Source: Candidatus Moanibacter sp.
Lineage (GTDB): Bacteria > Verrucomicrobiota > Verrucomicrobiia > Opitutales > UBA2987
Length of the DNA: 64,000 nucleotides
NCBI GenBank assembly: GCA_965215885.1
Contig: CBDCEW010000091.1
Location: 32,001-96,000 of the forward strand
Direction of reading: 5' to 3'
The notes under the pieces were generated by a model. That model ran no database searches and was not told where the DNA came from. It saw nothing but the letters and a program-made list of their open reading frames with translations. This document shows, one piece after another, positions 38,945 through 60,099 of the stretch. Each line of letters opens with the position of its first letter. Positions within the stretch are counted from its first letter, which is position 1. The translations under genes were made by a program, and so were the position numbers.

Positions 38945-40022
38945 ATGAAGGGCGATCACGCAATGCCGGTTGGGATCATCGGATCCGGGTTCATGGCGCG
39001 GACTTACGCGGAGTGCCTTGCGCGATATGTCGAGGGCGTCGAGCTTCGGGTTGTGGCGGGTGGGAGTCGGGCTCCAGGATTGGCCCGCGAGTACGGAATC
39101 GAGCGACTCGACAGGGCCGAGGAGGTGTTTGATAGGGAAGACATCGAGGCAGTGATCATCGCCACACCGGAGACGATTCACCCGGTGCAGGCGATTGCGG
39201 CGGCACAGGCCGGCAAGCATGTTCTTGTAGAAAAGCCCTTGGCGCCGACCCTCGAACAGTGTAACGCCGTGATTGACGCGTGCCGGAATTCGGGGGTGCG
39301 CCTGATGCAGGTTAAGCACTGTCGCTTTCGCGAAGTGCATCGGCGGGCAATCGAATTACTGCGCGAGGGAAACCTTGGGCCTGTGCGGCAGATACATAAT
39401 CGTACAATGGTGCCGGTCCAATCATCGGAAGCGGGCGTGAGAAAGAAGCCGTTTTACCTCGATCCTTCTGGCGGTGGGCTTTTCATGGGATGCTGCACCC
39501 ACAATTTCGACCTCGTCCGATGGTTGGCGGGCAGCGAGCCGAAACGGGTATTTGCTACGGTCACTTCATACGGTGACCATGCCATCCCGGAATTGACATC
39601 GATGGCGCAGATAGGCTTCGCCAATGAAGCGAAGGCTGCAGGTATGGATAACGGCGGAACTGCCGGATCCTGCGTTTGCGCAGAGCTTGTTCCGTACTGA
39701 GCTTGTTTGTGAAAACGGCGTCCTCGATCTTGACGGGGTAGGGCAGATTCAAGTCGGACAGGACGGTGAATGGCGTAGCATCTGGGAAGTAGCGAGGTTT
39801 GATCCGCAAGATCCCCTGGATCCGCGGAGCCTGGAGGGCTTCTCGGCCATGTTGCAGGAGTTCATCGACGCCAGTCGTGAAGACCGTGAACCATTAGTGA
39901 CCGGAGCGGATGGTCGGGCTGCGGTAGAACTCTGCCTGGCGGCGCGTGAGTCGGCGAAAGCAGGGGTGTGCAGTCGATTTGCCGTTGGGTGGTTAACCGA
40001 GAGCATGCGATTCACGCATTAG
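38945..40022 (+). CDS. Gfo/Idh/MocA oxidoreductase, frameshifted near 39635 (possibly again near 39965)
   Basis: GIIGSGFMA, GKHVLVEKP, GGGLF..CTHNFD. The C-terminal half is in another frame. Confidence 0.85.
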
Positions 40023-40165
40023 CGCAGAAACCGTAACTATCCCCCTCCTCAAGATCCTCCGGGCTCGCCCCGGAGAGTCTCAGGTTTTCTGGCTAAAGGG
40101 ACCGAACCTACCTTTCCTCAAGATCCTCCGGGCTTGCCCCGGAGAGTCTCAGGTTTCTTAGCTAC
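40019..40165 (-). repeat. 44-bp TAG-hairpin repeats directly downstream of the Y1 transposase
   Basis: Units at 40053-40096 and 40122-40165 (69-bp period), plus a truncated inverted unit at 40019-40044. Confidence 0.9.
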
Positions 40166-41013
40166 AGCCGCTCCCACCGATCGAGATATCTCTTTAACGC
40201 TCGCGAATTCAGGTCCCCATACCCGCCGACGTAAGCACTTGGCGTAAAGAGACGATCTACTCCTGCTTGAATAACGTGCTCGCTATGCCTTTCCCACATT
40301 ACCTCTTCAGCAAGGTTCATCAATTCGGACACGATTTTTTCCGGTGCAATTGAAGGATGTCCCCGCATCGCCAAATGCACGTGATCCGGCAAAAAGGACA
40401 CCTTGAGGAGCTTAAACTGATTCTCCTGTTCAGCTTTCTGCCAGCATCGGGTCACAGCAGGACCCGATTCCGAACCGAAAATTCCCTTTCGGGCTGTTGT
40501 TGCGATGACAATGTGGTAACGAAGACAAGTCACTGCATTCGGATTGAGCCGCGATTCATCGCCTGCCTCTTCCGGGAACTCCCGTTGAAAGACAGGCGGT
40601 ATGGCTCTGTCTTCATAACCGTGATGGCGGCTCTGCTTGGAAAGGTATCGGATTACTTGCGACTTTATACTCTTCCCGGATGTGGCTGCGAAATAGCCGC
40701 GTGAGAAGAGACGGGATTTCTCCCGTACTTCGTGGTCTGTCCGTAGGAATTTGCTGACTCGGCCCTTCAGTTTACTCGCTGTTGCGGATACGGTATCGGT
40801 TGGTTTCAGGCTCACTAGCGCTAGGCAGTTTCTTTCATCGGCGGAGAATTCGAGAAGGTGAATTCCGTAAGGATCCAGTAGTTTCTCGATGCGTTCTTTG
40901 TCGAGAGATTTCAGCTCGGACACGGACTTACGGCGATGCGTGTTCCACCGCAGGTAGCAGTGAATAGAGTAAGCGAAGGTTAATGATTCGGCTGTGTAGG
41001 GAGTACGGTGCAC
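40162..41013 (-). CDS. tnpA: Tandem two-domain Y1 (IS200/IS605 TnpA / RAYT-like) HUH transposase
   Basis: Domain 1: YLRWNTHRRK...LKG...LFSRGYF...RYLSKQ. Domain 2: YHIVIATTARK...PDHVHL...LFTPSAY...RYL. Confidence 0.85.
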   Translation of the reverse strand: MHRTPYTAESLTFAYSIHCYLRWNTHRRKSVSELKSLDKERIEKLLDPYGIHLLEFSADERNCLALVSLKPTDTVSATASKLKGRVSKFLRTDHEVREKSRLFSRGYFAATSGKSIKSQVIRYLSKQSRHHGYEDRAIPPVFQREFPEEAGDESRLNPNAVTCLRYHIVIATTARKGIFGSESGPAVTRCWQKAEQENQFKLLKVSFLPDHVHLAMRGHPSIAPEKIVSELMNLAEEVMWERHSEHVIQAGVDRLFTPSAYVGGYGDLNSRALKRYLDRWERL

Positions 41014-41019
41014 AAACTT

Positions 41020-43393
41020 CAGACCTCACTATATTGCCCCTCTAAAGGCACTATGCAATCGCAAGTTTAAATCCCTATTTTTTGCCCAGTCGGAAGATGA
41101 TTCTTCGGCCTGAACCGTCGGGCATCAGTAAGGGCTTCTCATTGAGAGTTTGCAGATACTCAAGCACCACCGCTTGCACCCGAGGGGGATAAGTTGCGGT
41201 GGGGAATAAATGCGCTTCGACCGCACAGCCCCTCTCTATAAGAACGCCGTCACTGTGAGTCAAATTGCGAAACAGATCGTGGTCGTCACGATAGTTGTTG
41301 TAGCGAGCTTTAAAGGGTTCGAGCTGCTTGTAGAAGCTGTTACGGGCGAAGATTTTCAAGGCATCCATGAGGGACTTGTTAGCGGTGTCCAGGCGGACAT
41401 AGTTTTCATCAATGAGGCGCTGCAGCCTCGAGCATTCGGTGTCGATTTGCTCCAGTTCGAGTTGGAGGGCTTTGAGGGCCTGATCGAGTCGACGGATCTT
41501 TTCGCCCCTTGAGGCGCTTTTGCCCGGGTGGGCATGCTCGGCCAGGAGCAGTCTTTTCAATTCTTCGGTGCATTGCTGTTTTTGCTTCAGGAGGGCTTTG
41601 GCGGCACCGCTTTTCTCCTGCTTCTCCTCAAGGTGTTGGGCTAATCGCTTGTAGTGGACGGTGCGATAAGAGGTGATCTGATTAATCCCAAAGTGCTTAT
41701 CGAGGTATTTGAAGTCATTCTCCTGAATCCAGCGACTGAACATCCCTTTGATTACCTCTTCATTTCGGGCCTGCTGATCGGTCGCCAGGATGCTCACGGT
41801 AATGGTTCGATTTTTTGGATTGGTCGCCTCCACGATCCACTGCACCAGTTGAGGATTTTTCTTCCAGGGGCCCCGCTGATAGCGAAGATGATACTCCTGG
41901 AGATCTTCGGCATGGTTGCGCGCGCGCTGCAGGCGCAACTGCCCGTCGATCCGTTGGAGGGGCTGGGCGCTGGCCTTGTAACCTTTTTCCCAGGTAATGA
42001 TTTCGAGTTGAGGATGCTCCACGATGGCTTCGTAAAACCACTCCGCGGCGATCGCCCGGTCCACGTAAATGCTCACCTTCTTATCAGCCGGCAACTGCAC
42101 CAGCTCGAGCATCGCTTCGCAGTTGGGGATAAACCGTTCCCTTATATCCTCATAGTTGTCAGTGCTCGCAAAATAGACCGGATAGCCCTTGAGGGTATGA
42201 ATAAAATCGCTGTGGAGCGCTTTGTCGGCCAGACGGATACCCGGACACCATCCCGCCAGCACCTTGCTCATTCCGGTGTAATGTTTGGTGTGCGGATCAT
42301 AATAAAAGCTCTCTTCATCCGAAGCATTCAGGCCCCTCGCGTTCACTCTGAGGATCTCTCTTAAAAGCCCTTCATCGGCCAGGGCGCTAAGGCTTTGGCG
42401 TTGCAGATAGGGGGTATACAGGACTCGCCCGATGAGTTTTTGCAGGTCTTCGAGATCGAGCAGTTTGCTCTGCTCGATATTGACCGCGGCCAACAACCCG
42501 CAAGCCACCCATTGTTTCAAAAGCCAGCCCTCTTCGCGATCAATCTGAGCGACTTCTCTGAGCGCGGCACTGAACAGAAGTACTCCCAGGTGCCGATACC
42601 ATTGCACCGCTTCGGAGCTCTCCCTCGAAAAATCGGGAGACTCCTTGCGATTGTCCCCTTCGCTTTCGGGGCTATTTTCTGCTTCTTGCTCCTGTTCGTC
42701 CCTCCCCGAGTCCTCCGGGCAATCCCAGGGAGTCTCCCGATTTTGCGCCCTCTCGGCTTCGGCCTCCTTTGCCCGGGCCTCTTTAAGCTCCTTAAAGACA
42801 GGGCGCAAAGTTTCCCCACTGAGGTTAACTCCGAACACCTCCTCGATCTCCCCCCGTATCTTCTTGCTGTAGCCATACCGACTCTCCCCATAGATCTGCC
42901 CGAAGCGCACCCGCCCAAAACTCCGGATTTCCCTCGTCAATTTGCGATGAGCGCTGCGTCCCGCCAGCACTCGCGCTAAGGTCTCGGCATCTCCGCTTTG
43001 AAGCGCCTCCCCCCACCGCTTCATCGTTTTGGGGTCAACCTCAAATTGCTTCTCTAAGCGCCCTTTCTTCAACCCCGCATTGTAGAGGCGCCCCACCAAT
43101 AGCTTGAATTCAACTTGCTCCCGATCGTCCTCTACGACTTCAAAAAGCTCATGCCCGTAATAGACGTGCAGTTTGCCTTCGCTCAGATCCCGATAGACCG
43201 TGATCGAGGGATTACCCTTGTCCACTCCAAGGATGCACTGTAAGAAGGTCTCTTCTTTGACGGTAGGTTTCTCCATTTTTCTTCGAATTTGATGGTTCGA
43301 AGATGAAGCCTACCGTTTTCTTTAGCTCTTAAAAGCCGGGAATTGTATCTGCGATTGCCCCCTGCCCGCCAACCCGCATGATAGCGAGTTCTG
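41020..43393 (-). mobile_element. 2374-bp IS, copy 1 (unclassified large DDE transposase)
   Basis: TIR CAGACCTCACTAT / CAGAACTCGCTAT. Near-identical to 53153-55528. Flanks AACTT/TGGTT give no TSD. Confidence 0.9.
41075..43276 (-). CDS. Putative DDE transposase (733 aa)
   Basis: HTH-like VDPKTMKRW, YYDPH, YVDRA and RWIQENDFKYL. Enclosed by TIRs and duplicated in the window. Confidence 0.85.
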   Translation of the reverse strand: MEKPTVKEETFLQCILGVDKGNPSITVYRDLSEGKLHVYYGHELFEVVEDDREQVEFKLLVGRLYNAGLKKGRLEKQFEVDPKTMKRWGEALQSGDAETLARVLAGRSAHRKLTREIRSFGRVRFGQIYGESRYGYSKKIRGEIEEVFGVNLSGETLRPVFKELKEARAKEAEAERAQNRETPWDCPEDSGRDEQEQEAENSPESEGDNRKESPDFSRESSEAVQWYRHLGVLLFSAALREVAQIDREEGWLLKQWVACGLLAAVNIEQSKLLDLEDLQKLIGRVLYTPYLQRQSLSALADEGLLREILRVNARGLNASDEESFYYDPHTKHYTGMSKVLAGWCPGIRLADKALHSDFIHTLKGYPVYFASTDNYEDIRERFIPNCEAMLELVQLPADKKVSIYVDRAIAAEWFYEAIVEHPQLEIITWEKGYKASAQPLQRIDGQLRLQRARNHAEDLQEYHLRYQRGPWKKNPQLVQWIVEATNPKNRTITVSILATDQQARNEEVIKGMFSRWIQENDFKYLDKHFGINQITSYRTVHYKRLAQHLEEKQEKSGAAKALLKQKQQCTEELKRLLLAEHAHPGKSASRGEKIRRLDQALKALQLELEQIDTECSRLQRLIDENYVRLDTANKSLMDALKIFARNSFYKQLEPFKARYNNYRDDHDLFRNLTHSDGVLIERGCAVEAHLFPTATYPPRVQAVVLEYLQTLNEKPLLMPDGSGRRIIFRLGKK

Positions 43394-43396
43394 TGG

Positions 43397-43591
43397 TTAG
43401 CTTAGAAACCTAATAATCCCCAGGGCAAGCCTGGGGGATTTGAAAATATGGGGTCTCCCGAATTAGCGAAGGAAACCTAACCATCCCCGGGACGAGCCCC
43501 GGGGATTGCCCTTCCGACTACCGGCACCGACCCAACCCATTCTCAAAGATCCTCCGGGCTTGCCCCGGAGAGTCTCAGGTTTTCCGGCTAA
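43397..43591. repeat. TAG-hairpin repeat cluster (two + units, one - unit)
   Basis: 43397-43440, 43463-43507 and 43548-43591. Confidence 0.9.
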
Positions 43592-43601
43592 AGAGCCTGT
43601 A

Positions 43602-43664
43602 TCACTTAGACAGTTCGAAACCGGCAATCAGGAAGTGTGGGTGACGATTGAAAGCGCGGGTGAT
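43602..43664 (-). pseudogene. 3' remnant of a vapC-like gene
   Basis: Translates ITRAFNRHPHFLIAGFELSK*, versus ITGAFSFDHHFLIAGFELFE* at 46106. Confidence 0.6.
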
Positions 43665-43780
43665 TCAGTTATTAAACCACGTGTTGACGGTTGCCCTTGG
43701 ATATCTGGCCAGTATAAGTCGGTAGGCATGGAAGTTAATCAGGTTATCGGTGCACAATATAAGGATCCGGGACAGCGCCA

Positions 43781-45811
43781 ATGAGCAAAGAATTTGATCT
43801 GGTAGTAGTCGGCGGCACGCCTGGGGGCGTGGCTGCCGCTATACGCGCGGCCCGGGAAGGCCTGCGTGTTCTTCTCACGCATTATCACGCTCACCTTGGC
43901 GGCCTTCTTTCCAGCGGTATTGGGGCGTTGGATACACAATACGGTGGTAAGCGCGCTCCCATCCATGGCGAATTCTGTGAGCGCCTGATTGACCACTACC
44001 GCGATACCTATGGCGCCGGCTCAGAACAGCTGAAGATCTGCCTTTACCATGGGCATTCCAAGTTCTGGGAGTTGGAAAAAGACCGTGGAGGAAAACTCGT
44101 GGAAGAGGTCGATGAACGCGAAGTGGCGGCGTTGCCGAACGAGTCGGCCTACTACTACGGCAAGATGCGTTTTGAGGCGAAGGTGGCGGAGAAGATCATC
44201 AACGAACTGGTCGCCTCCGAAGAAGGTATCGAGGTCTGGAAGAACTGCTATCCGACGGAGGTGGAACGGACCGGCCGGATGTTAACCGCGGTATACCTGA
44301 AATGGTTCGACGGCCGGGAACGCGCGCGGGTGGAAGCAAAGGCGTTCATCGACGCCTCCTATGAGGGCGACCTCATGGCGGCGGCTGGCGCCCCTTACCG
44401 AGTCGGCCGGGAAAGCCGATCGGAATTTAACGAGATCCATGCCGGCCGGATATTCACGGCTCTGCATTTCGCCGATGATGAGGAAGTCGGCTATCCAAGT
44501 GAGGCTGTCGTGGGCAAGCTGAACCTGGAACCCTACCGGGCCATCTCGCAGCAGATTCTGGCCGGAAGCACGGGCGGTGGAGATCACAGGATTCAAGCTT
44601 ATAACTACCGTGTTAATCTCAGTTCGGATCCCGAAAATCGATTGATGCCGGAGAAACCTGCCAATTATGACCGCGACACCTACCTCGCACTTCGGGATCG
44701 ATGGAGTTTGGGAATGGTGCTCCCAAACAAGAAACGCGGTTGGAATACGGCCAACCTGCCGGGTGGCGGCTATGAGTATCCGGACGGCGATTGGGAGACG
44801 CGCCGAGCGGTCGCACAACGGCATAAGGACCATGCTCTCGGGTTGCTCTATTTCCTGCAGCACGACGAGGAGGTTCCGCAGGCCTTACAGGAACAGTTTC
44901 AGCAACTGGGTTTGCCGGAGGATGAGTTCACGGAGAACGGGAATTTCCCTCACGAAATGTATGTGCGCGAAGGCAGGCGGCTGGAAGGGCGCTACATGCT
45001 CAAGGAATCTGATTGTACGCTCGCCCCGGAACTTGGCCGAGCTCCCATACTTCACGACAGTATCGCGATCTGCGAATGGTCCATGGATTCGCACTCCGTG
45101 AGTTTCGAAAAGATGCCCGGCGGAAGGCACGAAGGTAAAATCCTGCTCACGGAGATGACCCGGCCGTCTCAGGTACCTTACCGCACGCTCCTCCCACCCG
45201 ACATTGATAACTTGCTCGTGCCGGTCTGTCTTTCGGCGACCCATGTCGCATGGGGCACGGTCAGACTGGAACCGACCTGGATGCACATCGGAGAGTCGGC
45301 AGCGCATGCTGTCGTATTGGCTCTGGAGAACGGCGTGGCTCCGGCCCATGTAGATGTTAACGAGCTGCAGAGGCGATTAGTCGAAGCCGGAATAATGATT
45401 TCGTTTTTTAATGAATTCGATATGGCAACCGGGGAACCGTGGGTGCCCGCCGTTCTGTATCTCGGAACGAAGGGATTCTTTGCTGACTACGATGCCCGCC
45501 CGAATGATCCGCTCACTGCCGCCGAGGCCATAGTCTGGGCAAGCGCATTTGCGGAGCTATTGGATGGGAGCCTTGACACGACCAAACTGGCGAGGCGCAT
45601 CCATGGGCTGAGTGAGAAAAGAGATGCCGTAACCGTTACCGAATTCGCCAGGCTTCTCGAGGACGAGCTTCGCTACCGGGACCGGTTGCCTTCGGAAGGC
45701 GTCGCTCGGGGCGTCGGGCGGAACCATGAACCCGACCACCCCATTCTCAGGAAGGAGGCCTGCCGTATATTGTATGACTGGCTGAAACACGTTAATGTAC
45801 GTATTGGTTAG
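43781..45811 (+). CDS. FAD-dependent oxidoreductase
   Basis: VVGGTPGG, DASYEGD, IQAYNYR, YVREGRR and HVAWGTVRLEP. Confidence 0.9.
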   Translation: MSKEFDLVVVGGTPGGVAAAIRAAREGLRVLLTHYHAHLGGLLSSGIGALDTQYGGKRAPIHGEFCERLIDHYRDTYGAGSEQLKICLYHGHSKFWELEKDRGGKLVEEVDEREVAALPNESAYYYGKMRFEAKVAEKIINELVASEEGIEVWKNCYPTEVERTGRMLTAVYLKWFDGRERARVEAKAFIDASYEGDLMAAAGAPYRVGRESRSEFNEIHAGRIFTALHFADDEEVGYPSEAVVGKLNLEPYRAISQQILAGSTGGGDHRIQAYNYRVNLSSDPENRLMPEKPANYDRDTYLALRDRWSLGMVLPNKKRGWNTANLPGGGYEYPDGDWETRRAVAQRHKDHALGLLYFLQHDEEVPQALQEQFQQLGLPEDEFTENGNFPHEMYVREGRRLEGRYMLKESDCTLAPELGRAPILHDSIAICEWSMDSHSVSFEKMPGGRHEGKILLTEMTRPSQVPYRTLLPPDIDNLLVPVCLSATHVAWGTVRLEPTWMHIGESAAHAVVLALENGVAPAHVDVNELQRRLVEAGIMISFFNEFDMATGEPWVPAVLYLGTKGFFADYDARPNDPLTAAEAIVWASAFAELLDGSLDTTKLARRIHGLSEKRDAVTVTEFARLLEDELRYRDRLPSEGVARGVGRNHEPDHPILRKEACRILYDWLKHVNVRIG

Positions 45812-45827
45812 GGTGGGGCCTCGCCGG

Positions 45828-46094
45828 TTAGCATAGGAACCTAACTATCCCCAGGGCAAGCCTGGGGGATTTGATGTTGTGAGGGAGGACTCCTGAAGTA
45901 GCGAAGGTAACATAAGCATCCCCGGGACGAGCCCGTGGGATTGCCCTTCCGGCTACCCGACCGACCCAACCCACTCCAAAAGATCCTCCGGGCTTGTCCC
46001 GGAGAGTCTCAGGTTTTTCGGCTGCCCGGACCGATCGACCCACTCCAAAAGATCCTCCGGGCTTGTCCCGGAGAGTCTCAGGTTTTTCGGCTAA
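45828..46094. repeat. TAG-hairpin repeat cluster (two + units, two - units)
   Basis: 45828-45871, 45898-45942, 45982-46025 and 46051-46094. Confidence 0.9.
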
Positions 46095-46105
46095 AGAACT
46101 CAGAG

Positions 46106-46538
46106 TTACTCAAACAGCTCAAAACCGGCGATCAGGAAGTGATGATCAAAGCTGAAAGCGCCGGTGATTCCCAATTTCTTCATAACGGCGAAGGAAACGC
46201 CATCGACCATGCTGATATCCTGCCCCCGATATTGTGCCATTAGATCGAGGCCGGCCGTCTCATCTTTTCGCGATGAGTCGTGAATCACAAAGGAGCCCGA
46301 TTGGTAAATAGACCGGATTCTCTTAACCGCAACATCGGCGCTGCTTCTCCGCGAAAGGAGGGTTGCTGTCTCAACCAGGACCAGATTCGTCGTCACCAGG
46401 GGTATCGCTTCTTTCCTGATTGATGACCAGCGTGACTGCGCATCATCGAAATATTGATCACGCTTCAGGTAACTGAGGTTAATATTGATCACGCTTCAGG
46501 TAACGAGCAAGAAAAGCGCCTGTGTCTACGAAGATCAT
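46106..46538 (-). pseudogene. vapC: PIN-domain toxin (VapC-like) disrupted by a 31-bp insertion
   Basis: MIFVDTGAFLA start overlaps the antitoxin stop (ATGA). VLVET, SMVDGVSF and FSFDHHF. A 24-bp duplication plus 7 bp shifts the frame. Confidence 0.85.
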
Positions 46539-46771
46539 TCCTTTCTTCCGTAGAGGTATTCATCGTGACTTGCCGCGAAGTCGGTTGGACCGCTGTCGTC
46601 TATGACTTCACTGTCCGCCCAGAATGGATCCGTTTCCGAGGCCGGTTTGAGAGACACCTCTTTCTCAAGGGATCTGCGGATAAGCTGGCTCAAGGAGATT
46701 CCTAGCCGTTTTGCGCGCACCTCCGCTTTGGCTTTGACTTCCGAGTCGAGTAAAATGGTCGTTCTATGCAT
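46535..46771 (-). CDS. vapB: Ribbon-helix-helix antitoxin (VapB/CopG-like)
   Basis: MHRTTILL...GISLSQLIRRSL and C-terminal HDEYLYG. Upstream of the PIN gene. Confidence 0.8.
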   Translation of the reverse strand: MHRTTILLDSEVKAKAEVRAKRLGISLSQLIRRSLEKEVSLKPASETDPFWADSEVIDDSGPTDFAASHDEYLYGRKE

Positions 46772-46857
46772 AGCCATACATATGGCGTAGCAACTAGCTT
46801 CTGTCAAGCGGATCGTAGGAAGCTTATGGAAGAAAGCGGCTGATTCATAAACTGGAC

Positions 46858-47589
46858 TTGCCTTTCATTCGGCTCTTAACTTTTGAGGTCCGGTCTCTTC
46901 ACCATCTGGAGGACGCAATTCTGAACAGCTTATTCGGATTACGATTACTGCGCCGACGCCCGGTTCGACTGATGCTGATTGGGTCAGTGGGAATCCTGCT
47001 CTTCATTTTGGTTGCACAGTTTCGGATTTCGCAACTTCCCGAGCCAGCTCCGGAGAAGTTTCAGGTGTCCGGGAAGGAGGTCATTCGTGACGAATTGGAG
47101 CGTATCCGGGAGTCGTCCTTCGGCGGATCGCCGCGAGGCAGGATCCTCTGTAACAGGGTGGAGAATTTCCTCGAGGAGGGGCGCATTATTTTCAGTTCCA
47201 AACTGGGAGGTCCTCGCGGTGTGTGGCACCAGAGTATTTTCGGGAGAGAGAAAATCTACGTGAGAATCCTTGAAATGAATAACGCCCGCTTTATTCATCA
47301 GCTGCCCTACCAAATGATGGAGGCGATTGTCCATGAAGGCGTGCATTCTGCCCACGGCAGGTTTCACCGCAACAGCATCGAGGAAGAATGCGATGCCTTC
47401 GTCGCGGGCATGACCGTCGAGGCGCTGATTAAGGATGAAGATGTGCCCAACGTGTTCACGATCGATGGCAAGACCCTGGGTAGCTATCTTCTGGCGGCCT
47501 ATTCCGATCTTCGAAGAAACCCTTACTATCGTCCCATCGGCATTTCCCTTGAGGAGATCTACCGTCGCTCGGGCCTAGAGGGGCCTTAG
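46858..47589 (+). CDS. Hypothetical membrane-anchored protein with a zincin HExxH motif
   Basis: N-terminal TM and IVHEGVH...EEECDAF. Start codon uncertain. Confidence 0.55.
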   Translation: MPFIRLLTFEVRSLHHLEDAILNSLFGLRLLRRRPVRLMLIGSVGILLFILVAQFRISQLPEPAPEKFQVSGKEVIRDELERIRESSFGGSPRGRILCNRVENFLEEGRIIFSSKLGGPRGVWHQSIFGREKIYVRILEMNNARFIHQLPYQMMEAIVHEGVHSAHGRFHRNSIEEECDAFVAGMTVEALIKDEDVPNVFTIDGKTLGSYLLAAYSDLRRNPYYRPIGISLEEIYRRSGLEGP

Positions 47590-47766
47590 TCCCGGCAAGC
47601 CGGGATCTGACCGATTCAATTTCTTTTCAATTCCGTCTTGCCGGGAAACTTCGAACACCGAAAGTCCCTACTTCGATGTTGGACGTTGAAAAAATCCGCG
47701 GTATTTTCGACTTTACGACGAGTCCGAATTTTTCACAGATTTGCGGACTGGAAAACGGAGAGCGAT

Positions 47767-48181
47767 ATGGCGTCGAACAATGAATCGAAGAGACAGCCGC
47801 GTAAAGGGCTCGAGCGAATTCTTTTCGCTACTGTTTTCTCTATCGATGGGATTCGTTCGGCGTTTAAGTTGGAGGAAGCGTTTCGCCAGGAAGTTTACCG
47901 GGCCCTCGTTCTAACGGTTGTTGCTGTGATTCTTCCGGTAGGGTTGACGGCGAAAGCAATCCTGCTTGGAAGTGTCTTCCTTGTCCTGATCGTCGAGTTG
48001 CTGAATTCGGGTCTAGAGACGACGATCGATTACATTTCTTCGGAGGAACATCCCTATGCCAAGCGTGTGAAGGACATGGGGAGTGCGGCGGTTCTTCTCA
48101 GCCTGGTAAACCTGTGCGCTCATGTGGGGACTGGGGATCATCGATAACTGGGGTCTCATCGTTAGTCACTGGTCGTTCTGA
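47767..48181 (+). CDS. dgkA: Diacylglycerol kinase, frameshifted near 48115
   Basis: EEAFRQE, ELLNSGLE..D and AKRVKDMGSAAV. The last TM continues in another frame. Confidence 0.88.
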
Positions 48182-48182
48182 C

Positions 48183-50190: not shown

Positions 50191-50352
50191 CTTCGCCTCG
50201 ACGAGAACAGAATCGTTGAATCCGAAGAGGTGCGTCCAGGGGTGATCCTTGACTTTGACGAAAGCGACCGCGTTGTGGGCGTCGAGTTTCTGAACATTTC
50301 CACTCTCGCTACTCCAGACGAACTCTCGTCGATTCAATTCCAGTCAACCTGA
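50191..50352 (+). pseudogene. DUF2283-like protein, 5'-truncated
   Basis: RLDENRIVESEEVRPGVILDFDESDRVVGVEFL. No start codon upstream in frame. Confidence 0.6.
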
Positions 50353-50696: not shown

Positions 50697-53052
50697 ATGA
50701 TTGGCCAGACCATCACCCATTACCGCATTACGGACAGGATCGGCGCAGGTGGCATGGGCGAGGTGTACCGGGCCACCGACACGGTTTTGAAGCGTGAGGT
50801 AGCGCTGAAGTTTTTGCCCGAGGAACTGGCGCGGGATGAGGTGGCCCGCCGTCGCTTCCTGCGGGAAGCCCAATCCGCCGCTGCTCTCGACCACCCGTTT
50901 ATCTGTCACATCCACGAAATTGGTGAAGCCGACGGCAAGGACTTTATCGCCATGGAATATGTCGAGGGCCGGACTCTTAGGGACCGACTGGCTCCGGGGC
51001 CGCTCGCCATTGCAGAGTGCCTCAAGATTGCCCTGGAGATCGCTGAAGCCCTTGAGAAGGCACATCAGAACAGGATTGTACACCGGGATCTCAAACCCTC
51101 CAACATCATGCTGACACCGGACGGGCACGCTAAGGTGATGGATTTTGGTCTGGCCAAGCGTGTGGCGCGAGAGGAGGAAAATAGCGAAGAAGCGACCCTG
51201 ACCGGTCTGACGCGGGAAGGATCGACCGTCGGCACCGTACCCTACATGTCGCCTGAACAACTCAAGGGAGAAGAGGTGGACACCCGATCCGACATCTTCT
51301 CCTTCGGGATCATTCTTTACGAGATGCTGGCCGGGGTGCACCCGTTCCGAAAGCCCGAGGGGATAGAGACGGCGGGAGCGATTCTGCACAATGAGCCGGC
51401 GCCGCCGGCACGTTACCGGGAGGGGGTCTCCGAAGTTCTGGGACACATGCTCAGAAAGATGCTGGCGAAGGATCCCGGCGACCGCTACCAGTCGGTGCAC
51501 GAGGTGCAGACTAACCTCAGGATGGTGAGCGGCGAGTCGGTGCCGCCCGACCGGGATGAAGAGCCGCGACCGGCACTCCGCAGATCGAAAAAGAGTGTCG
51601 TCCTCCTGTCGGTGCTCTCGGTGGTGGTGTTAGCGGGCTGTATTCTGCTTTGGGTGCGTCAGGCTGAGGAGCCGCCAGCGGTCACCGTGGAAGGAAAAGC
51701 CGACTCTGGAAAGGTGACGGTGGCACAGTCGGAACCCACACCGGGCATCGCGGATCACGCATCTCGTATCCCGTCGGAGCGTAGCGCAGACCCTGAGCCT
51801 GCCAGCCCCGAGCCCGGTCGAGGGGTCGAAGGGGATCCCGCATCCCGTCGAAGCGTAGCACAGACCCTGAGCCCGTCGAAGGGCATCGCGCATCCCGCAT
51901 CTCGGGACAGATCCATCGCCGTTCTCCCTTTCGCCAATCGAAGCAACCTTGAGGAGGACCTCTTTTTCACGGACGGGATCCACGACGACCTACTCACCCG
52001 CATCTCGCGCATCCCCGGAATCAGGACGATCTCGCGGACCTCGGTCATGCGTTACCGGAACCCGGTCCAGAACATGCGGACGATTGGAGAGGAACTCGGC
52101 GTAAGTCACATCCTGGAAGGGGGCGTCCAGCGCGCGGGCGACCGGATCCGCATCAACGTGCAGTTGATCGACACTCTGGCCGATGCGCACCTCTGGGCGG
52201 AGACCTACACCAAGGTGCTGACGGCTGGGAACGTCTTTGAAATCCAGAATGAGATCTCCCGGGCGATCGTGGACATCTTACGGGTGATACTGTCTCCCGA
52301 AGACAGGGAACGCATGGATCGATTGCCCACGGAAAACCTCGTGGCCCTCGAGTCCTATTTCAAGGGAAAAGTAGGTTTCTTTTTGTACACCCTCCAGGGA
52401 GCGGAAGAGGCGGTCGTTCATTTCGGAAAGGCGGTCGAGTTGGACCCCGGGTTCGCGTCTGCCCAAGCTATGCTCGGTCGAAGCTTGCTGAGAAAATTCT
52501 TTTATGCCAAAGCTCATTCCGACGATCAGCCGGTCATCGAAGCAGAGTCCCATATCCTGAGGGCGGTGGAGTTGGACGACTCGTTGAGCGAAGCCTATGC
52601 TGCACTGGGAGGCTGCCTTTCCTTCTCTTTTCGATCCGTCGGTTGAGCTCAATTATCGGAATTTCCACGCCGCGAAGGAGGTCGCTCGGGTATTGATGGC
52701 GATGGGCGAAAGCGATCAGGCCAATCAACTGATTGAGAAAGCCCTTCCGCTCGCGAAATCACTTCTGAGAGGGCCTGGCTATTTTGAGATCCCTCGTGTC
52801 TTTGAGGCAACCCTTCGCTCCATTGAGGGCGACGAACGGGAAGCGCTGGACGCGATCAGGCGATCTTGGGGTGGTCGGTGGTCTCCATACGAACTCTTGC
52901 TGATCGATGAGCTGAAGCCAATTCTGGACCATCCCGAGTACCAGGCGATGGCCGCGAAGCGAAAGGCCGAGCTGGCGGTCCAGTTGGAGCGTATCCGGGA
53001 GATGGAGGCCAACGGTGAACTGGCGCGGATTCCGGTGTTGGAAGGGGAATAG
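50697..53052 (+). CDS. Hanks-type Ser/Thr kinase with TM, TolB-N-like domain and TPR tail; frame break near 52620
   Basis: [38 protein letters not shown] and TPR helices. Confidence 0.9.
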
Positions 53053-53152
53053 GGCAATTGCGTGGATCCTTTGTTTTTCACGATTTTTGGAACTACGAAT
53101 AGCGCGAATCTGCGCAAATGGGGAATGAATCCGTCCCGGTCGGACCGAAGCT

Positions 53153-55528
53153 CAGACCTCACTATATTGCCCCTCTAAAGGCACTATGCAATCGCAAGTT
53201 TAAATCCCGATTTTTTGCCCAGTCGGAAGATGATTCTTCGGCCTGAAACCGTCGGGCATCAGTAAGGGCTTCTCATTGAGAGTTTGCAGATACTCAAGCA
53301 CCACCGCCTGCACCCGAGGGGGATAAGTTGCGGTGGGGAATAAATGCGCTTCGACCGCACAGCCCCTCTCTATAAGAAACGCCGTCACTGTGAGTCAAAT
53401 TGCGAAACAGATCGTGGTCGTCACGATAGTTGTTGTAGCGAGCTTTAAAGGGTTCGAGCTGCTTGTAGAAGCTGTTACGGGCGAAGATTTTCAAGGCATC
53501 CATGAGGGACTTGTTAGCGGTGTCCAGGCGGACATAGTTTTCATCAATGAGGCGCTGCAGCCTCGAGCATTCGGTGTCGATTTGCGCCAGTTCGAGTTGG
53601 AGGGCTTTGAGGGCCTGATCGAGTCGACGGATCTTTTCGCCCCTTGAGGCGCTTTTGCCCGGGTGGGCATGCTCGGCCAGGAGCAGTCTTTTCAATTCTT
53701 CGGTGCATTGCTGTTTTTGCTTCAGGAGGGCTTTGGCGGCACCGCTTTTCTCCTGCTTGTCCTCAAGGTGTTGGGCTAATCGCTTGTAGTGGACGGTGCG
53801 ATAAGAGGTGATCTGATTAATCCCAAAGTGCTTATCGAGGTATTTGAAGTCATTCTCCTGAATCCAGCGACTGAACATCCCTTTGATTACCTCTTCATTT
53901 CGGGCCTGCTGATCGGTCGCCAGGATGCTCACGGTAATGGTTCGATTTTTTGGATTGGTCGCCTCCACGATCCACTGCACCAGTTGAGGATTTTTCTTCC
54001 AGGGGCCCCGCTGATAGCGAAGATGATACTCCTGGAGATCTTCGGCATGGTTGCGCGCGCGCTGCAGGCGCAACTGCCCGTCGATCCGTTGGAGGGGCTG
54101 GGCGCTGGCCTTGTAACCTTTTTCCCAGGTAATGATTTCGAGTTGAGGATGCTCCACGATGGCTTCGTAAAACCACTCCGCGGCGATCGCCCGGTCCACG
54201 TAAATGCTCACCTTCTTATCAGCCGGCAACTGCACCAGCTCGAGCATCGCTTCGCAGTTGGGGATAAACCGTTCCCTTATATCCTCATAGTTGTCGGTAC
54301 TCGCAAAATAGATCGGATAGCCCTTGAGGGTATGAATAAAATCGCTGTGGAGCGCTTTGTCGGCCAGACGGATACCCGGACACCATCCCGCCAGCACCTT
54401 GCTCATTCCGGTGTAATGTTTGGTGTGCGGATCATAATAAAAGCTCTCTTCATCCGAAGCATTCAGGCCCCTCGCGTTCACTCTGAGGATCTCTCTTAAA
54501 AGCCCTTCATCGGCCAGGGCGCTAAGGCTTTGGCGTTGCAGATAGGGGGTATACAGGACTCGCCCGATGAGTTTTTGCAGGTCTTCGAGATCGAGCAGTT
54601 TGCTCTGCTCGATATTGACCGCGGCCAACAACCCGCAAGCCACCCATTGTTTCAAAAGCCAGCCCTCTTCGCGATCAATCTGAGCGACTTCTCTGAGCGC
54701 GGCACTGAACAGAAGTACTCCCAGGTGCCGATACCATTGCACCGCTTCGGAGCTCTCCCTCGAAAAATCGGGAGACTCCTTGCGATTGTCCCCTTCGCTT
54801 TCGGGGCTATTTTCTGCTTCTTGCTCCTGTTCGTCCCTCCCCGAGTCCTCCGGGCAATCCCAGGGAGTCTCCCGATTTTGCGCCCTCTCGGCTTCGGCCT
54901 CCTTTGCCCGGGCCTCTTTAAGCTCCTTAAAGACAGGGCGCAAAGTTTCCCCACTGAGGTTAACTCCGAACACCTCCTCGATCTCCCCCCGTATCTTCTT
55001 GCTGTAGCCATACCGACTCTCCCCATAGATCTGCCCGAAGCGCACCCGCCCAAAACTCCGGATTTCCCTCGTCAATTTGCGATGAGCGCTGCGTCCCGCC
55101 AGCACTCGCGCTAAGGTCTCGGCATCTCCGCTTTGAAGCGCCTCCCCCCACCGCTTCATCGTTTTGGGGTCAACCTCAAATTGCTTCTCTAAGCGCCCTT
55201 TCTTCAACCCCGCATTGTAGAGGCGCCCCACCAATAGCTTGAATTCAACTTGCTCCCGATCGTCCTCTACGACTTCAAAAAGCTCATGCCCGTAATAGAC
55301 GTGCAGTTTGCCTTCGCTCAGATCCCGATAGACCGTGATCGAGGGATGACCCTTGTCCACTCCAAGGATGCACTGTAAGAAGGTCTCTTCTTTGACGGTA
55401 GGTTTCTCCATTTTTCTTCGAATTTGATGGTTCGAAGATGAAGCCTACCGTTTTCTTTAGCTCTTAAAAGCCGGGAATTGTATCTGCGATTGCCCCCTGC
55501 CCGCCAACCCGCATGATAGCGAGTTCTG
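53153..55528 (-). mobile_element. 2376-bp IS, copy 2, with 5-bp TSD AAGCT; transposase frameshifted near its 3' end
   Basis: AAGCT at 53148-53152 and 55529-55533. ORF 53294-55411. Two 1-bp insertions relative to copy 1. Confidence 0.92.
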
Positions 55529-55544
55529 AAGCTACTGAACCCCT

Positions 55545-55830
55545 TCATTCATGTTGTTTCATCCAGTAATCTCTAAACGCTCGAAGCCGAGGAAGCGTCT
55601 CGCGATCGCTAATCCGGTCAGCTGCTGTCTTGCTGGCAATTATGTCATCGAGATGACACACCGGGAAGCCCTCCACTTCGACATGCCGATTCCAGGCTTC
55701 CTCGAAATCTTCTATTCCGTCTGGCGCAAATATCAGATCGAGGTCGAAAGGACCATTCTTCAGCTGAACATTGTCTTTACCGCTCTCAATTTCAGCGGCC
55801 TGGACATAATCAAAGCGTGCGGCCATAACC
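55545..55830 (-). pseudogene. Nucleotidyltransferase-like gene with an apparent internal deletion
   Basis: MAARFDYVQAAEI runs straight into GPFDLDLIFAPDGI...LDDIIASK...R..DRETL. The GG/DxD core is missing. Confidence 0.5.
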
Positions 55831-56051
55831 CAACCAATTCGGAAGATTCTCTTCGCATCAGAGCAGGTATTGAGCTGTCGACTCAAATGACCGGAAGGCT
55901 GCATCATCAAGCACAGGTTTATAACTGTTCCTCTCCTTTATTTGATAACTACGAATAGCGCTGCAGTTCGACGGTGCTCACCACAGGCGATCCGGCTACA
56001 CCTATCCGCGTCATAATCTATCTTACTATCTGGACCCCGGCAGGCCGGGGT

Positions 56052-57095
56052 TCAGCGCACCTCTTCCGCTTCCACCTGATCCGGAACCACTACCGTCTTG
56101 ATATGATTACCGGAAGGTGAGGCGACCACTTCCGCGTAGCGCTCGAGATTAACGGTGCGTGTGACGAGAGGGTCGACCTGAATCCTCCGGGAAGTGATGA
56201 GGTCCAGGGCGGCGCCGAAAGTGTTGTTGAAAGAACGTCCGCCGATCAACTGAATCTCCTTGCGCCAGATGATGTGCGGTTCGATTGGAACGGTCTTTCC
56301 CGCGCTCGCGACGCCATAGCAGAGAAGGCGTGCACCGATTGCGCAGAGCTTGAAAGCCAGTTCGGTAAATTCCATCGATCCCCGGGTGTTGATCACGATG
56401 TCGGCTCCCTGTGGAAACTGACGCTCGATTTCCTCGAAAGTTGTGACAGATGTGTCGATAACCTCGTCCGCGCCCAGGGCAGACGCCATTTGCAGCCTTT
56501 CTTTTATGCTGTCGATCAGGACCACCCGTCGGGCTCCCTTGAGATGGGTCAACTGGACAAATACTTGGGCGTTCAAGCCGCCGCCGAGGATTGCGACGCA
56601 GTCTCCCTGCTGGACATTAAGTCGGCTCGTCGAGTGCAGGCAGCAGGCGAGGGGTTCAGTGACGGCGGCTTCGACCAGGCTTGTTCCCTCATCGATGAGG
56701 TAGCACTGCTCGGGAAATACGGCGGTATATTCGGCGAATCCACCACCCTTCAGGCGCGGGTGTGGTACCCGATTTTCGCAGAGGTGGGACATTCCTTTGT
56801 GGCAGGGTGGGCAGCGTCCACAGGGGCGATGCGGACTCACTGCCACCCTGCTGCCGATTGGCAATCCCTGAACTTCCTCACCGCATGCGGCAACGGTACC
56901 CGCCACTTCATGCCCCGCGATAGCCGGCTCCCTGCGGTTTGCCAATTTTTTCGCGCCCGATTTATGGCCGCTGTAATCGCCGCCACAGATCCCGCAACCG
57001 CCCACTTTGACGAGGACCTCTTCCTCACCCGGGACGGGATCGGCCATGGATTCCACGCGAATGTCTCTCGGACCGAAAGTTAGCGCCGCTTTCAT
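56052..57095 (-). CDS. Zinc-dependent (MDR) alcohol/polyol dehydrogenase
   Basis: CGICGGD, GHE, CGRCPPC..GMSHLC and EPLACC. Confidence 0.92.
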   Translation of the reverse strand: MKAALTFGPRDIRVESMADPVPGEEEVLVKVGGCGICGGDYSGHKSGAKKLANRREPAIAGHEVAGTVAACGEEVQGLPIGSRVAVSPHRPCGRCPPCHKGMSHLCENRVPHPRLKGGGFAEYTAVFPEQCYLIDEGTSLVEAAVTEPLACCLHSTSRLNVQQGDCVAILGGGLNAQVFVQLTHLKGARRVVLIDSIKERLQMASALGADEVIDTSVTTFEEIERQFPQGADIVINTRGSMEFTELAFKLCAIGARLLCYGVASAGKTVPIEPHIIWRKEIQLIGGRSFNNTFGAALDLITSRRIQVDPLVTRTVNLERYAEVVASPSGNHIKTVVVPDQVEAEEVR

Positions 57096-57298
57096 ATTCG
57101 TGTACAGAGTAGTGGCTGTTTGAAGCCTCACGCAAGTCTTAGTCTTGCCGAACAGTGGTCCAGACTGTAGGATTCTGCCGTACGGCAGAACGGAGGTTAC
57201 CAAAATGCCACGGTCCTTTGAAAATCCGGCTACAGATGGCGTCATTCTTGTAGCCGCGTTCGCAAGAACGTGGGGTGTTTTCAATAGAATTATTCTTT

Positions 57299-58617
57299 CA
57301 GTACTGTCCGGTTATAAGTCAAACAACTCCAACTGTTTAGGAATGCGGTGTTCATTGAAAGTGTAATCGGTTTCTGTAAGTAGTTCAGTCATAGGAGTTT
57401 TCTCAAATAGGGTGAAGCTGAGAATCTGTAGGATTTTGTGCAAACTGATCTCCAGGCGAAGGCGTTTGCGGATGATGGCGATGAGCACATAGACGCTGAC
57501 GGCAATCCAGATTTGAGTCTTCACAGCATTCTCGGAGGTGCCGAAAAAGCTCTTGATGCGCAAGTGCTGTTTGATCCATTTGAAGAACAATTCGATCTGC
57601 CAGCGTAAACGGTAAATCTGGGTGATGATTATGGCTGGGAGGGCAAACTGGTTGGTGAGAAACACGAAGCGCTCGGAACTGTCGGGATCGAGGTAAGTGA
57701 TACGCCGGAGTCTTTCGGGGTAGGCCTTGGCAGGATAGAAGCTGACCAGGGCAACGGTCTGGTCCGAACGCAGACCGGTTGATTTGTCGACCTTTTGAGA
57801 GTAGAGGCGGCGAAACTGAAAGCCGCGGCGGGCGCGTGTGACGAAGAAAGAACCGCATTGTGCGATCCGATAGAGGCGCTCGTAATGCAGATAGGCTCGG
57901 TCCATTACATAGTAAGCACCGGCCTCGGGGATGATGAGATCCAGAATGTTTACGTCGTGAACTTTTCCATCGGTAATCTCGATAAAATAAGGGATAGAGC
58001 CTCTGAGATCGAGAAGCGTATGGACCTTCACCGCCCCCTTGTGCTTGCGGAAACGTGCCCACGGGAAGAGTGATAGACATAGATCGATCGTGGTGGAGTC
58101 CAGAGCGTAGAGCGTATTGTCCAGGTCGATGCCCAGATCCTCGTTTGAATACAAAGGACGAGCCATTGCGATGAGGACCTGTGCAAAGTCGGCGTAGATG
58201 CGCCAGTCTCGTTTCTCGTTGGCATCGGCGAGCGTGCTTTTGGATACTCCGCTTCGAATCCCTGCGTGGTATAGTTTTGGTTGTACTGCCCGCAGGCAGG
58301 TTTCGATGTCGCGCAGACTCTCCCGGTAGGTCAACTCGGCAAAACCCATGCAGAGAAATTGTTCGAAGCAACTGAACTTTTGAACTTTGTAGTCGCCTCC
58401 GTAGCGTTGGACGCAACGATGGAACTGATGGCGCGGAAGATAATCTATGATTTGAGAAAAAACGAATCGACCTGTATACATGATTTGGACCCTCGAAATT
58501 TTTGAGAGTCCACAAGGCTTTTTGCAATTTCAAGTCGAAAACAGCAGAAATCATATGTAAAATGTTGGTTATCAATCGATTAACCTGCGTTCCTAGAAAA
58601 ACAACCGGACAGTAGTG
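57299..58617 (-). mobile_element. IS4-family insertion sequence with 9-bp TSD TTATTCTTT
   Basis: TIR CAGTACTGTCCGGTT / CACTACTGTCCGGTT. TSD at 57290-57298 and 58618-58626. Confidence 0.95.
57312..58481 (-). CDS. IS4-family transposase (DUF4372 + DDE)
   Basis: LDSTTIDL, MDRAY and YRLRWQIELFFKWIKQHL. Confidence 0.95.
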   Translation of the reverse strand: MYTGRFVFSQIIDYLPRHQFHRCVQRYGGDYKVQKFSCFEQFLCMGFAELTYRESLRDIETCLRAVQPKLYHAGIRSGVSKSTLADANEKRDWRIYADFAQVLIAMARPLYSNEDLGIDLDNTLYALDSTTIDLCLSLFPWARFRKHKGAVKVHTLLDLRGSIPYFIEITDGKVHDVNILDLIIPEAGAYYVMDRAYLHYERLYRIAQCGSFFVTRARRGFQFRRLYSQKVDKSTGLRSDQTVALVSFYPAKAYPERLRRITYLDPDSSERFVFLTNQFALPAIIITQIYRLRWQIELFFKWIKQHLRIKSFFGTSENAVKTQIWIAVSVYVLIAIIRKRLRLEISLHKILQILSFTLFEKTPMTELLTETDYTFNEHRIPKQLELFDL

Positions 58618-58624
58618 TTATTCT

Positions 58625-59030
58625 TTAGCTTAGAAGCCTAACGATCCCCAGGGCAAGCCTGGGGGATTCGAGAGTCTCAAGTTTTTCGGCTACCAAGACC
58701 GATCCAACCTTTCCAGAAGATCCTCCGGGCTCGCCCCGGAGAGTCTCAGGTTTTTCGGCTACCAACGCCGCTCCAACCATTCCAGAAGATCCTCCGGGCT
58801 CGTCCCGGAGAGTCTCAGGTTTTTCGGCTACCAACACCGATCCAACCATTCCAGAAGATCCTCCGGGCTCGCCCCGGAGAGTCTCAGGTTTTTCGGCTAC
58901 CAACGCCGCTCCAACCATTCCAGAAGATCCTCCGGGCTCGCCCCGGAGAGTCTCAGGTTTTTCGGCTACCAGCACCGATCCAACCATTCCAGAAGATCCT
59001 CCGGGCTTGACCTGGAAAGCATTCTGGTTT
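58625..59030. repeat. TAG-hairpin cluster: one + unit and a 69-bp tandem array of - units
   Basis: + unit at 58625-58668. - units at 58719, 58788, 58857 and 58926, with a degenerate one at 58995. Confidence 0.95.
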
Positions 59031-59047
59031 AGACGCTTCAGGCACGT

Positions 59048-59897
59048 ATGAAATTCTCGAGACTTGAAAACGAGCAGAGGGAGTTCTTCGACCAGAACGG
59101 ATACATGGTCGTGCGCAAGGCTTTGGACGCCGATATGTTGGAGCGGGTGACGGCGGCATGTGACGGAGTGGTGGAGAAGAATTACAAGGATCTCGGCTCC
59201 CGTCGTGCTAGCCTATTAAACGTCCTTCCCGAGGATGATGTCTTCCTGACCCTCCTTACGTGGGAAAAAACCGTGCCGCTGGTTGTCCAGTTGCTGAGTT
59301 TCGACCTTCGCCTCGCAAAGTCACACCTCATCTACAACTTCCCGGACCCTCCGAATGCCAAACCGCCGACCAACTGGCACCGCGATTTCACGGAGAGTCC
59401 ATTTGATCTCGGTCCCCACCGCTACCCGCGTCTGCTCATCAAGATCGCCTATCAGTTGACCGACACGACTTCGCTCAGCGGGAATACGATTCTTGTGCCC
59501 GGGAGCAATAACTACAACCGGCGACTCGAAATTCCAGAGGGGCAGAACGACCCGGATGGCGCCGTCGAGCTCGAACTTCAAGCGGGCGACGCCTTTCTCT
59601 TCGAGAGCCGTACTTTCCACCGAATCGGGCTCAATCGAAGCGAAGTCCCCAGAAAATGCCTGATGATGGGATACTCCTATGGCTGGATCAGTCCGCTCGA
59701 CTACGACGTGCAGCCGGATTGGCTGTTGGAGAAGGTAACCGACCCCATTGCGCGGCAACTCATCGGCGCCAATAAAAGGCGGGAGTACGGAAGTAGACCC
59801 ATGGGCGCTTAGAGAATGGGCTGAAGAGCACGGCATCGAGCGTTCCTCTGATATCGAGTACGAGCGGGTGATGGCGAGCGCCGCGCCAGGGCCGTAG
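59048..59897 (+). CDS. PhyH family Fe(II)/2OG dioxygenase, probable frameshift near 59790
   Basis: FFDQNGY, WHRD, VPGS, AGDAFLF..RTFH and NRS..PRK. Confidence 0.88.
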
Positions 59898-60055
59898 CTC
59901 TTTGAGGGGGTTTTTCCGGAGGCGTTATCGGAGAGCTTGATCGCCTTACCCAAAAGAAGAGGTAAGGTACCAGACTTATTTGCGCTAAGAAAAGGGTCTA
60001 TCACTCGCGAGCGAAGGTTAGTTATTCGGAGGTATAGTTAGTACGGTAGACGTCT

Positions 60056-60099
60056 TTAGCGTAGATACCTAGCTATCCCCAGGGTAAGCCTGGGGGATT
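60056..60099 (+). repeat. Single TAG-hairpin repeat unit
   Basis: TTAGCGTAGATACCTAGCTAT-CCCCAGGGTAAGCCTGGGGGATT. Confidence 0.85.

Follow-up and report, generated by a model that had tools for sequence, protein, structure and literature searches.

In this study, we describe an enzyme-repeat system in a 64,000-nucleotide stretch of Candidatus Moanibacter sp. (Verrucomicrobiota; assembly GCA_965215885.1, contig CBDCEW010000091.1, positions 32,001 to 96,000 of the forward strand), hereafter the window. Its gene (40162..41013, minus strand) encodes a protein of 283 amino acids (aa) in which two Y1 domains of the IS200-type HUH transposases are fused, and it is flanked by clusters of a hairpin repeat that is also dispersed through the genome. 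The gene and the repeat co-occur across phyla. They make up a real and widespread enzyme-repeat family, similar to the systems formed by repetitive extragenic palindromes (REPs) and REP-associated tyrosine transposases (RAYTs) and apparently of separate insertion sequence (IS) origin, from IS200. As far as can be judged from sequence, the enzyme likely has a single active site and likely nicks single-stranded DNA (ssDNA) copies of the flanking repeats, so that it likely maintains and spreads them, as has been proposed for RAYT enzymes and their REPs. The repeat resembles an IS200-type right end and is likely nicked at a site spelled by its own DNA.

Repeat units lay within 600 bp of 50 of the 57 two-domain homologues. 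They were present on both sides of the gene at 43 of the 57 loci, and at 27 of these 43 the tails of the units face the gene from both sides. The homologue loci are mostly from Planctomycetota and Acidobacteriota according to their record titles, with some from Lentisphaerae, Verrucomicrobia and others. The first-pass annotation, which was made from the letters of the window, had regarded the protein as an IS200-derived enzyme with its own dispersed repeat family, and this view is borne out by the single gene copy, the two Y1 matches and the same repeats around the homologues. The genome-wide count that it had suggested also showed the units to be dispersed. A profile trained on the homologue loci picked out 58 units in the genome, against 0 when the genome was reversed, a structure-only detector that is blind to the pairing rule described below found 76 against 4 in each of two controls, and the two sets combined come to 94 units, which form 63 clusters and are spread over 34 contigs.

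Among 41 related genomes, the full-length gene was found only in G000 and G006, and the repeat pattern only there too (a strict pattern gave 33 and 13 copies, a loose pattern 67 and 107). The relatives G003 and G020 have IS200 matches, no two-domain gene and 0 repeat copies. Five homologue-bearing genomes carry 23-131 copies each. In the order of G041, four of 101 genomes have the gene and all four have the pattern (70, 45, 5 and 2 copies), 86 have neither gene nor repeat, and 6 show one match, which is the control level; these association counts come from related and hence non-independent genomes, many of them incomplete assemblies.

The protein is matched twice by PF01797. Its N-terminal Y1 domain covers about residues 10-131 (40621..40986, minus strand), has no HUH motif and keeps Tyr123, Gln127 and Lys81/Lys83. 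The C-terminal Y1 domain covers about residues 158-280 (40174..40542, minus strand) and keeps Asp210-His211-Val-His213, while its own Tyr276 is not followed by Gln at +4. The homologues were collected as a set of 95 close sequences and a wider set of 101 clusters at 50% identity (E up to 1e-30). Tyr123, Gln127, His211 and His213 are each invariant in the 95 close homologues, none of which has a His pair at the HUH position of the N half. The HUH motif of the C half (DHVH) is present in all 95, and Tyr276 is kept in 87, again without Gln four residues on. This tyrosine is Phe in one 80%-identical homologue. A distant clade shows the same split of the motifs and often has F, W, L or M at position 276, and in a third clade the chain ends before this position in 6/6 aligned proteins. 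The third clade (loci L161, L166, L171 and L210-L214; genomes G042, G044, G200 and G260), which is without the second tyrosine, is accompanied by related hairpins that end in GCTA.

We infer from these residues that Tyr123/Gln127 of the N half and the HUH motif of the C half make one composite active site. In IS608 TnpA, each site consists of one monomer's tyrosine helix together with the other monomer's HUH motif, and an engineered heterodimer of H64A and Y127F subunits cleaves the right end and fails in strand transfer (PMC3597680). Since the motif halves are complementary and this precedent exists, the fusion would be a natural form of that heterodimer. The conservation of Tyr276 in most close homologues could instead point to an enzyme in which Tyr123 and Tyr276 alternate at one HUH site, as in two-tyrosine rolling-circle initiators, and which might excise circles. 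However, such an enzyme is very improbable, given that Tyr276 is replaced or absent in the homologues listed above and has no Gln at +4, and that the arrays of repeats have no circle-type breakpoints.

The structure model of the chain (pLDDT 89.9, pTM 0.88) is nearest in fold to the TnpA proteins of IS608 and ISDra2 (Z 10-11; for 2vhg, Z 11.1 and a root-mean-square deviation of 2.3 over 125 residues), and its match to the E. coli TnpA-REP (4er8) is weaker (Z 5.4). The NCBIfam models gave a similar picture, with 104.4 bits for the IS200 model NF033573, above its cut-off, and 26.2 bits for the RAYT model NF047646, whose cut-off is 80. A quick tree (96 rows, 143 columns) puts the N domains in one group (support 99) and the C domains in another (support 98), and both join the subclass 1.1 IS200 TnpA proteins (98), apart from subclass 1.2 and class 2; class 2 is thinly sampled in this tree and class 3 absent from it, two class-2-like rows are mislabelled, and seven rows (three third-clade proteins and four broken or partial ones) were left out beforehand. 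The tree placement suggested by the first-pass annotation was thus answered in part: within the limits of a quick tree, both domains go with IS200 TnpA and not with the RAYT groups. An origin from subclass 1.2, which was prompted by an HH motif, found no support in the tree. Direct comparison of the N and C profiles was weak (probability 1.2%), and the duplication of the domain therefore rests on the Pfam matches and the tree.

The gene is under purifying selection, with ratios of nonsynonymous to synonymous substitution (dN/dS) of 0.12-0.31 in 7 pairs and saturation in an eighth. One copy is present in this assembly (90% complete), and one to three diverged copies per genome were found elsewhere, the paralogues being 53% identical in G043 and 92% identical in G044. 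The genes next to the homologues are not conserved between loci. The absence of tnpB, already remarked on by the first-pass annotation, applies to the window and to the neighbourhoods of the homologues: neither TnpB nor a recurring partner gene was seen among the 55 open reading frames (ORFs) scanned out of 70 neighbours. No matches came from scanning metagenomes with the single protein or viral sequences with the alignment.

The repeat provides the evidence for how the enzyme would choose its site. Read on its working strand, which is opposite to the earlier TAG-first reading, the unit consists of a 4-nt guide, a stem of 7 bp that carries a CTYG loop and a single bulged base, a 4-nt spacer, a 4-nt cut motif and a tail of G-Y-T-N4-5-GCTAC. 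In 358 distinct units from 51 sources, guide base 1 is complementary to cut base 2 (g1:c2) in 328 and guide base 4 to cut base 4 (g4:c4) in 327, which ranks both among the stem pairs. All three guide/cut pairs hold in 285 of the 358. The two variable pairs hold together in 306 units, compared with a mean of 238 and a maximum of 254 in within-source permutations; the columns of g1:c2 and g4:c4 were neutralised in the unit scan, those of g2:c1 were not. Units were present at 68 of 80 held-out metagenome loci, where 273 of 340 obeyed the rule at fixed spacing (shuffle maximum 126), a figure that rises to 315 of 340 if one extra base is allowed. The rule was also obeyed by 67 of the 76 units found with the rule-blind detector in this genome. 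The same detector revealed a subfamily here with guide GCTG and cut GCAC or GCGC, in which g2:c1 is C:G instead of A:T. Two loci missed by the profile, L042 and L054, are on-rule by eye.

At the ends of IS608, guide bases 1-2 pair crosswise with cut bases 1-2 and form triples with two bases 3' of the stem (PMC3201880, PMC5934647). In the units, the triple-forming second base after the stem is T with A at g1 (204 of 358) and G with G at g1 (78 of 358), and this choice, which tracks g1, matches the left- and right-end triples of IS608. The fourth base is also paired in IS608, and this fits its AAAG/TTAC pair. The base after the predicted cut is G in 540 of 546 units and the third base is T in 525 of 546. 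Some units, here and in G006, have an insert of about 35 bp in the loop (C78:10900-11030, C88:7250-7350, C105:169627-169750 and C105:231000-231130; L059:1140-1210).

The first-pass annotation had likened the unit to an IS608-type left end, with a TAG cut about 20 nt before the hairpin. This analogy gave way to a right-end geometry, in which guide and cut motif covary on the opposite strand and the TAG/CTA block shows no covariation. The regular position of TAG, which stands at one fixed distance in 258 of 463 candidate hairpins, is what a left end on the TAG strand would lead one to expect. Nevertheless, the bases on the TAG side do not covary with the foot of the hairpin, and all strong covariation outside the stem fits right-end geometry on the other strand, which leaves the left-end model with hardly any probability. 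When this model was tried directly, no rule-obeying motif was found at a fixed distance upstream of the guide.

An internal control for the rule was provided by the multicopy IS200 resident in the same genome. Its right end begins with the guide AATG, followed by a stem with a CTTG loop, 4 nt of spacer and the motif TTAC. Copies of this element diverge right after the motif predicted by the rule at 9/9 intact right ends (8 share one further T; a tenth, interrupted copy was left out), and its left ends are on-rule in 8/9. The shared loop, spacer and pairing rule, together with the occurrence of some copies inside miniature elements with IS4-type ends, might suggest that the repeats are decayed or non-autonomous right ends of an ordinary IS200 transposase and that the two-domain gene is a mere neighbour. 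This explanation is improbable, although not as much so as the left-end model. The stem of the IS200 is perfect over 8 bp, and the element ends at the cut, whereas the stems of the units are bulged and a tail always follows. Among the Y1 matches listed for the genome, none other than the two-domain gene has a unit within 6 kb; the first-pass annotation had named repeats around an unrelated RAYT elsewhere in the genome as an outcome that would refute its proposal. Moreover, the units accompany the two-domain homologues as described above, and G003 and G020, with their IS200 matches, have no copies.

By analogy with the IS608 work, the folded chain would be a locked heterodimer, with Tyr123 and Gln127 from the N half completing the HUH site in the C half. 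Pairing of the guide with the cut motif would set the nick just 3' of that motif. The tyrosine would then become attached to the conserved tail, and the protein probably recognises this tail. Because there would be only one active site, paired excision as in a normal IS200 is not expected. In the most tentative step, the hairpin-side 3'-OH may prime local copying or rejoining and so seed inward-facing pairs and arrays. The enzyme is best read as a one-site nicking and rejoining protein that starts local copying from the 3'-OH.

Several observations weigh against this reading, in which the spread of the repeats is a weak step. Some copies, as noted, are carried inside IS4-type miniature elements, and five of the 101 genomes of the order of G041 have 2-6 copies although two queries did not find the gene. 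By eye, the rule could not be made out in L029, L034 and the third clade, where related hairpins end in GCTA. A strand-transfer footprint at the cut was absent in three sequence tests. In 52 arrays, the tail goes more often with the preceding hairpin than with the next one (40 vs 24); perfect rule-obeying hairpins ending at the cut numbered 0/47; and orphan cut-plus-tail halves were not above chance (for the TTAG type, 3 vs 18 in the reversed control). One allele in X1 is short of exactly one unit, with the crossover inside a 9-nt window that holds the predicted cut, but slippage explains this loss equally well. Growth of arrays by circle excision and reinsertion at the cut was considered and rejected, since the linkage runs the wrong way for the tail, and the spacer gave 36 vs 28. 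The negative strand-transfer tests indicate that the whole unit with its tail acts like a fixed site of recognition rather than like the edge of an element that has just moved.

The missing footprints, the few diverged gene copies under purifying selection and the inability of the trans-only IS608 heterodimer to rejoin (PMC3597680) are also what would be expected if the enzyme has a host function. It might nick or mark ssDNA, cutting as predicted, while the repeats spread by slippage, recombination and hitch-hiking. This is the main rival explanation, and we regard it as unlikely. It does not readily account for the dispersed copies, which track the gene, for the unconserved neighbours and the patchy distribution (2/41 and 4/101 genomes), or for the coordinated guide/cut changes that have been amplified as whole subfamilies. 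A one-site enzyme that nicks its repeats and thereby spreads them remains the explanation that we favour.

The dispersed copies form arrays or inward-facing pairs, and in a few instances they lie inside elements with IS4-type ends. Inward-facing GCTG-guide pairs of about 260 bp surround a long central palindrome at about 30 sites and have conserved outer ends that start near GTAC; they were also observed in G006, and examples in G000 are C98:90130-90330, C89:17290-17490 and C100:187420-187610. Several unrelated ISs share a single insertion point in the hairpin of the GCTG subfamily, within its 5' arm, at C4:32540, C38:3874, C83:39043, C85:71335, C97:118505 and C102:47606 of G000. An element of about 610 bp with IS4-type inverted ends (compare window 38714-38739) contains four units of three guide types, and its copies in G000 are at C80:24851-25459, C85:38282-38890, C100:195992-196433 and C94:13109-13318.

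In the window, all fifteen units reported by the first-pass annotation are present where it had placed them. Both of its stem subtypes were recovered, six CCCC-type units reading TAG on the plus strand and nine CTCCGGG units reading TAG on the minus strand. Its statement that the first 40 kb are free of units holds for complete copies, and a hairpin-less half match at 33558 is no better than chance. Strands given below are working strands; among the complete, on-rule units, those on the plus strand have guide GATC with cut TCAG and those on the minus strand AATC with TTAG. Two plus-strand units lie at the 3' end of the gene, at 40053..40096 (predicted nick after 40083) and 40122..40165 (predicted nick after 40152). 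The tail of the second overlaps the stop codon of ORF 40162-41013, which is the TAG of the unit, as had been noticed before; the stop codon is formed by a unit's TAG also in 14 of 47 homologue loci examined. The gap from TAG to the hairpin is 17 nt in this genome and 16 nt in most homologue loci.

On the other side of the gene are minus-strand units at 43397..43440 (predicted nick between 43410 and 43409, tail toward the gene) and 43463..43507 and a plus-strand unit at 43548..43591. Between this cluster and the gene start is a multicopy IS with a 733-aa Transposase_29-like ORF (41015..43393, minus strand), an unrelated insert that is no part of the gene-repeat system. The earlier suggestion that the cluster would abut the gene once the IS is removed was confirmed by contigs of runs X2 and X13, which join 41014 to 43394; an allele without the IS therefore exists, and the IS is a later insertion. 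In the RNA run X13, the gene is covered in short pieces only.

A minus-strand pair spans 45828..45942, with units at 45828..45871 and 45898..45942, the latter off-rule by one changed base (cut TTAT). A plus-strand pair spans 45982..46094, with units at 45982..46025, in which the TAG is missing, and 46051..46094. Further downstream, a minus-strand unit at 58625..58668 is separated by 7 nt from where an IS4-type element ends and is followed by a plus-strand tandem array with a 69-nt period (58669..59040), which consists of a half unit (about 58669-58693), four full units (starts 58719, 58788, 58857 and 58926) and a degenerate last unit, a sixteenth hairpin at 58996-59017. The half unit and this hairpin are additional to the fifteen. 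A solo, slightly decayed minus-strand unit at 60056..60099 is off-rule by one changed base (cut CTAG). Reads aligned to 58560-60300 gave no informative joint, and there were no Rfam matches in 39900-60200. The single-strand folding z-scores are modest (-1.4 to -2.9) and do not distinguish the strands.

Other features of the window were also noted. There are two copies of a repeat cluster joined to the 3' end of a PIN-domain gene (43397-43720 and 45828-46170), which bracket a flavin adenine dinucleotide (FAD) oxidoreductase gene (43781-45811); an intact PIN/ribbon-helix-helix (RHH) pair lies at 46106-46807. A Gfo/Idh/MocA oxidoreductase gene (38936-40022) is frameshifted near 39637, where reads of X1 and X2 are one base shorter. 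ISs are at 41015-43393, 53152-55530, 57312-58615 and 37400-38739, and two of them end 3-7 nt from the tail of a unit.

The balance of the evidence tips toward a second independent origin of a REP/RAYT-type system, in which an IS200 transposase was duplicated and fused into an enzyme with one site, while its right end turned into a self-contained site at which nicking is programmed by the DNA and in which guide and cut motif have changed in concert on many occasions. REPIN-RAYT systems have been argued to arise rarely, possibly once, from an IS200-like ancestor (bioRxiv 10.1101/2021.07.10.451892). The present family appears to record the same step on a separate occasion, its protein and DNA still showing their descent from IS200. 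If this is true, the enzyme would be a naturally occurring nickase of single strands, made of one chain and reprogrammable, and the family a living intermediate between IS200 elements and REPtrons. Since the predicted cut is fixed to the base, the way in which such repeats are cut and spread can be tested with short oligonucleotides, and the natural guide/cut pairs are a ready set for testing reprogramming.

With the IS200/IS605 TnpA proteins (IS608 and ISDra2; subclass 1.1, PMC6006769), the enzyme shares the Y1 fold, the Y-x-x-x-Q helix and the tree group, and the repeat has the pairing of guide with cut motif and the base triples found at the right end of IS608. However, those enzymes carry HUH and the catalytic Y-x-x-x-Q in one domain of about 150 aa and work as homodimers with two sites, whereas here the motifs are split over two fused domains with probably one site per chain. 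An IS200/IS605 element has a left and a right end on the same strand and its boundary at the cut, and its gene is found in many near-identical copies; here there is no left end, conservation passes the cut into a tail of 12-13 nt, tens of units are dispersed on both strands, and one to three diverged gene copies are found. In the IS605/IS1341 group tnpB stands beside tnpA, unlike in the window and among the 55 neighbour ORFs. The H64A and Y127F heterodimer of He et al. 2013 (PMC3597680) has the same division of labour between tyrosine and HUH, but it was engineered, while the two-domain protein is natural, covalently linked, conserved across phyla and accompanied by a cognate repeat.

Single-domain proteins of subclass 1.2 (median 148 aa) and class 3 (178 aa) (PMC6006769) differ from the two-domain form described here. 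The N half shares with subclass 1.2 an ending Y-x-x-x-Q-x-x-HH, but the tree separates them and the flanks looked different. Single-domain subclass 1.2 genes with multi-hairpin repeats of their own were observed at L143, L145-L149, L200-L202, L205 and L209; the available part of the 2018 classification gives no flanking repeats for this subclass (PMC6006769). Class 3, compared by its description there, is IS-like, repeat-flanked and found in Planctomycetes and Acidobacteria, with NHVH and a CnGA foot as opposed to DHVH here (PMC6006769). Quentin et al. 2018, in the part available, report no tandem form and discarded unexpectedly long proteins as fusions or errors (PMC6006769), and a term search of the accessible text of Bertels 2017 (PMC5581495) found no mention of fusion or tandem forms. 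In the literature outside subscription journals and ISfinder, no paper on a fused two-domain TnpA or its repeats was found.

With REPtrons (PMC8266576, PMC6006769, bioRxiv 10.1101/2021.07.10.451892), the system shares a low-copy gene, purifying selection, flanking clusters of a cognate hairpin repeat, dispersal as arrays and inverted pairs, and a GTAG-like block within the unit. However, the Y-x-x-x-NP motif of the class 2 RAYT/TnpA-REP proteins is missing, and both domains fall outside class 2 in the quick tree. REPs have a fixed GTAG foot, GT[AG]G standing no more than 1-2 nt away from the 5' foot of the stem, whereas the unit has a variable guide, a 4-nt cut motif at a fixed place inside it and the block on the other strand, 16-17 nt from the stem; the first-pass annotation had rightly called this layout unlike that of classical REPs. 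GTAG repeats of Di Nocera 2013, compared by description and not by family consensus, have at most a dinucleotide before the stem (PMC3733652). A motif search with six 8-nt core motifs found none with a matching layout in the accessible Table S1 of Quentin (PMC6006769). Classical GTAG-footed REP-like hairpins of other families are themselves present in the window, at 1793-1826, 7273-7307, 20133-20159 and 57166-57192. The system works like a REPtron, yet neither its sequence nor the layout of its repeat places it in that group, and it is no IS200 element either.

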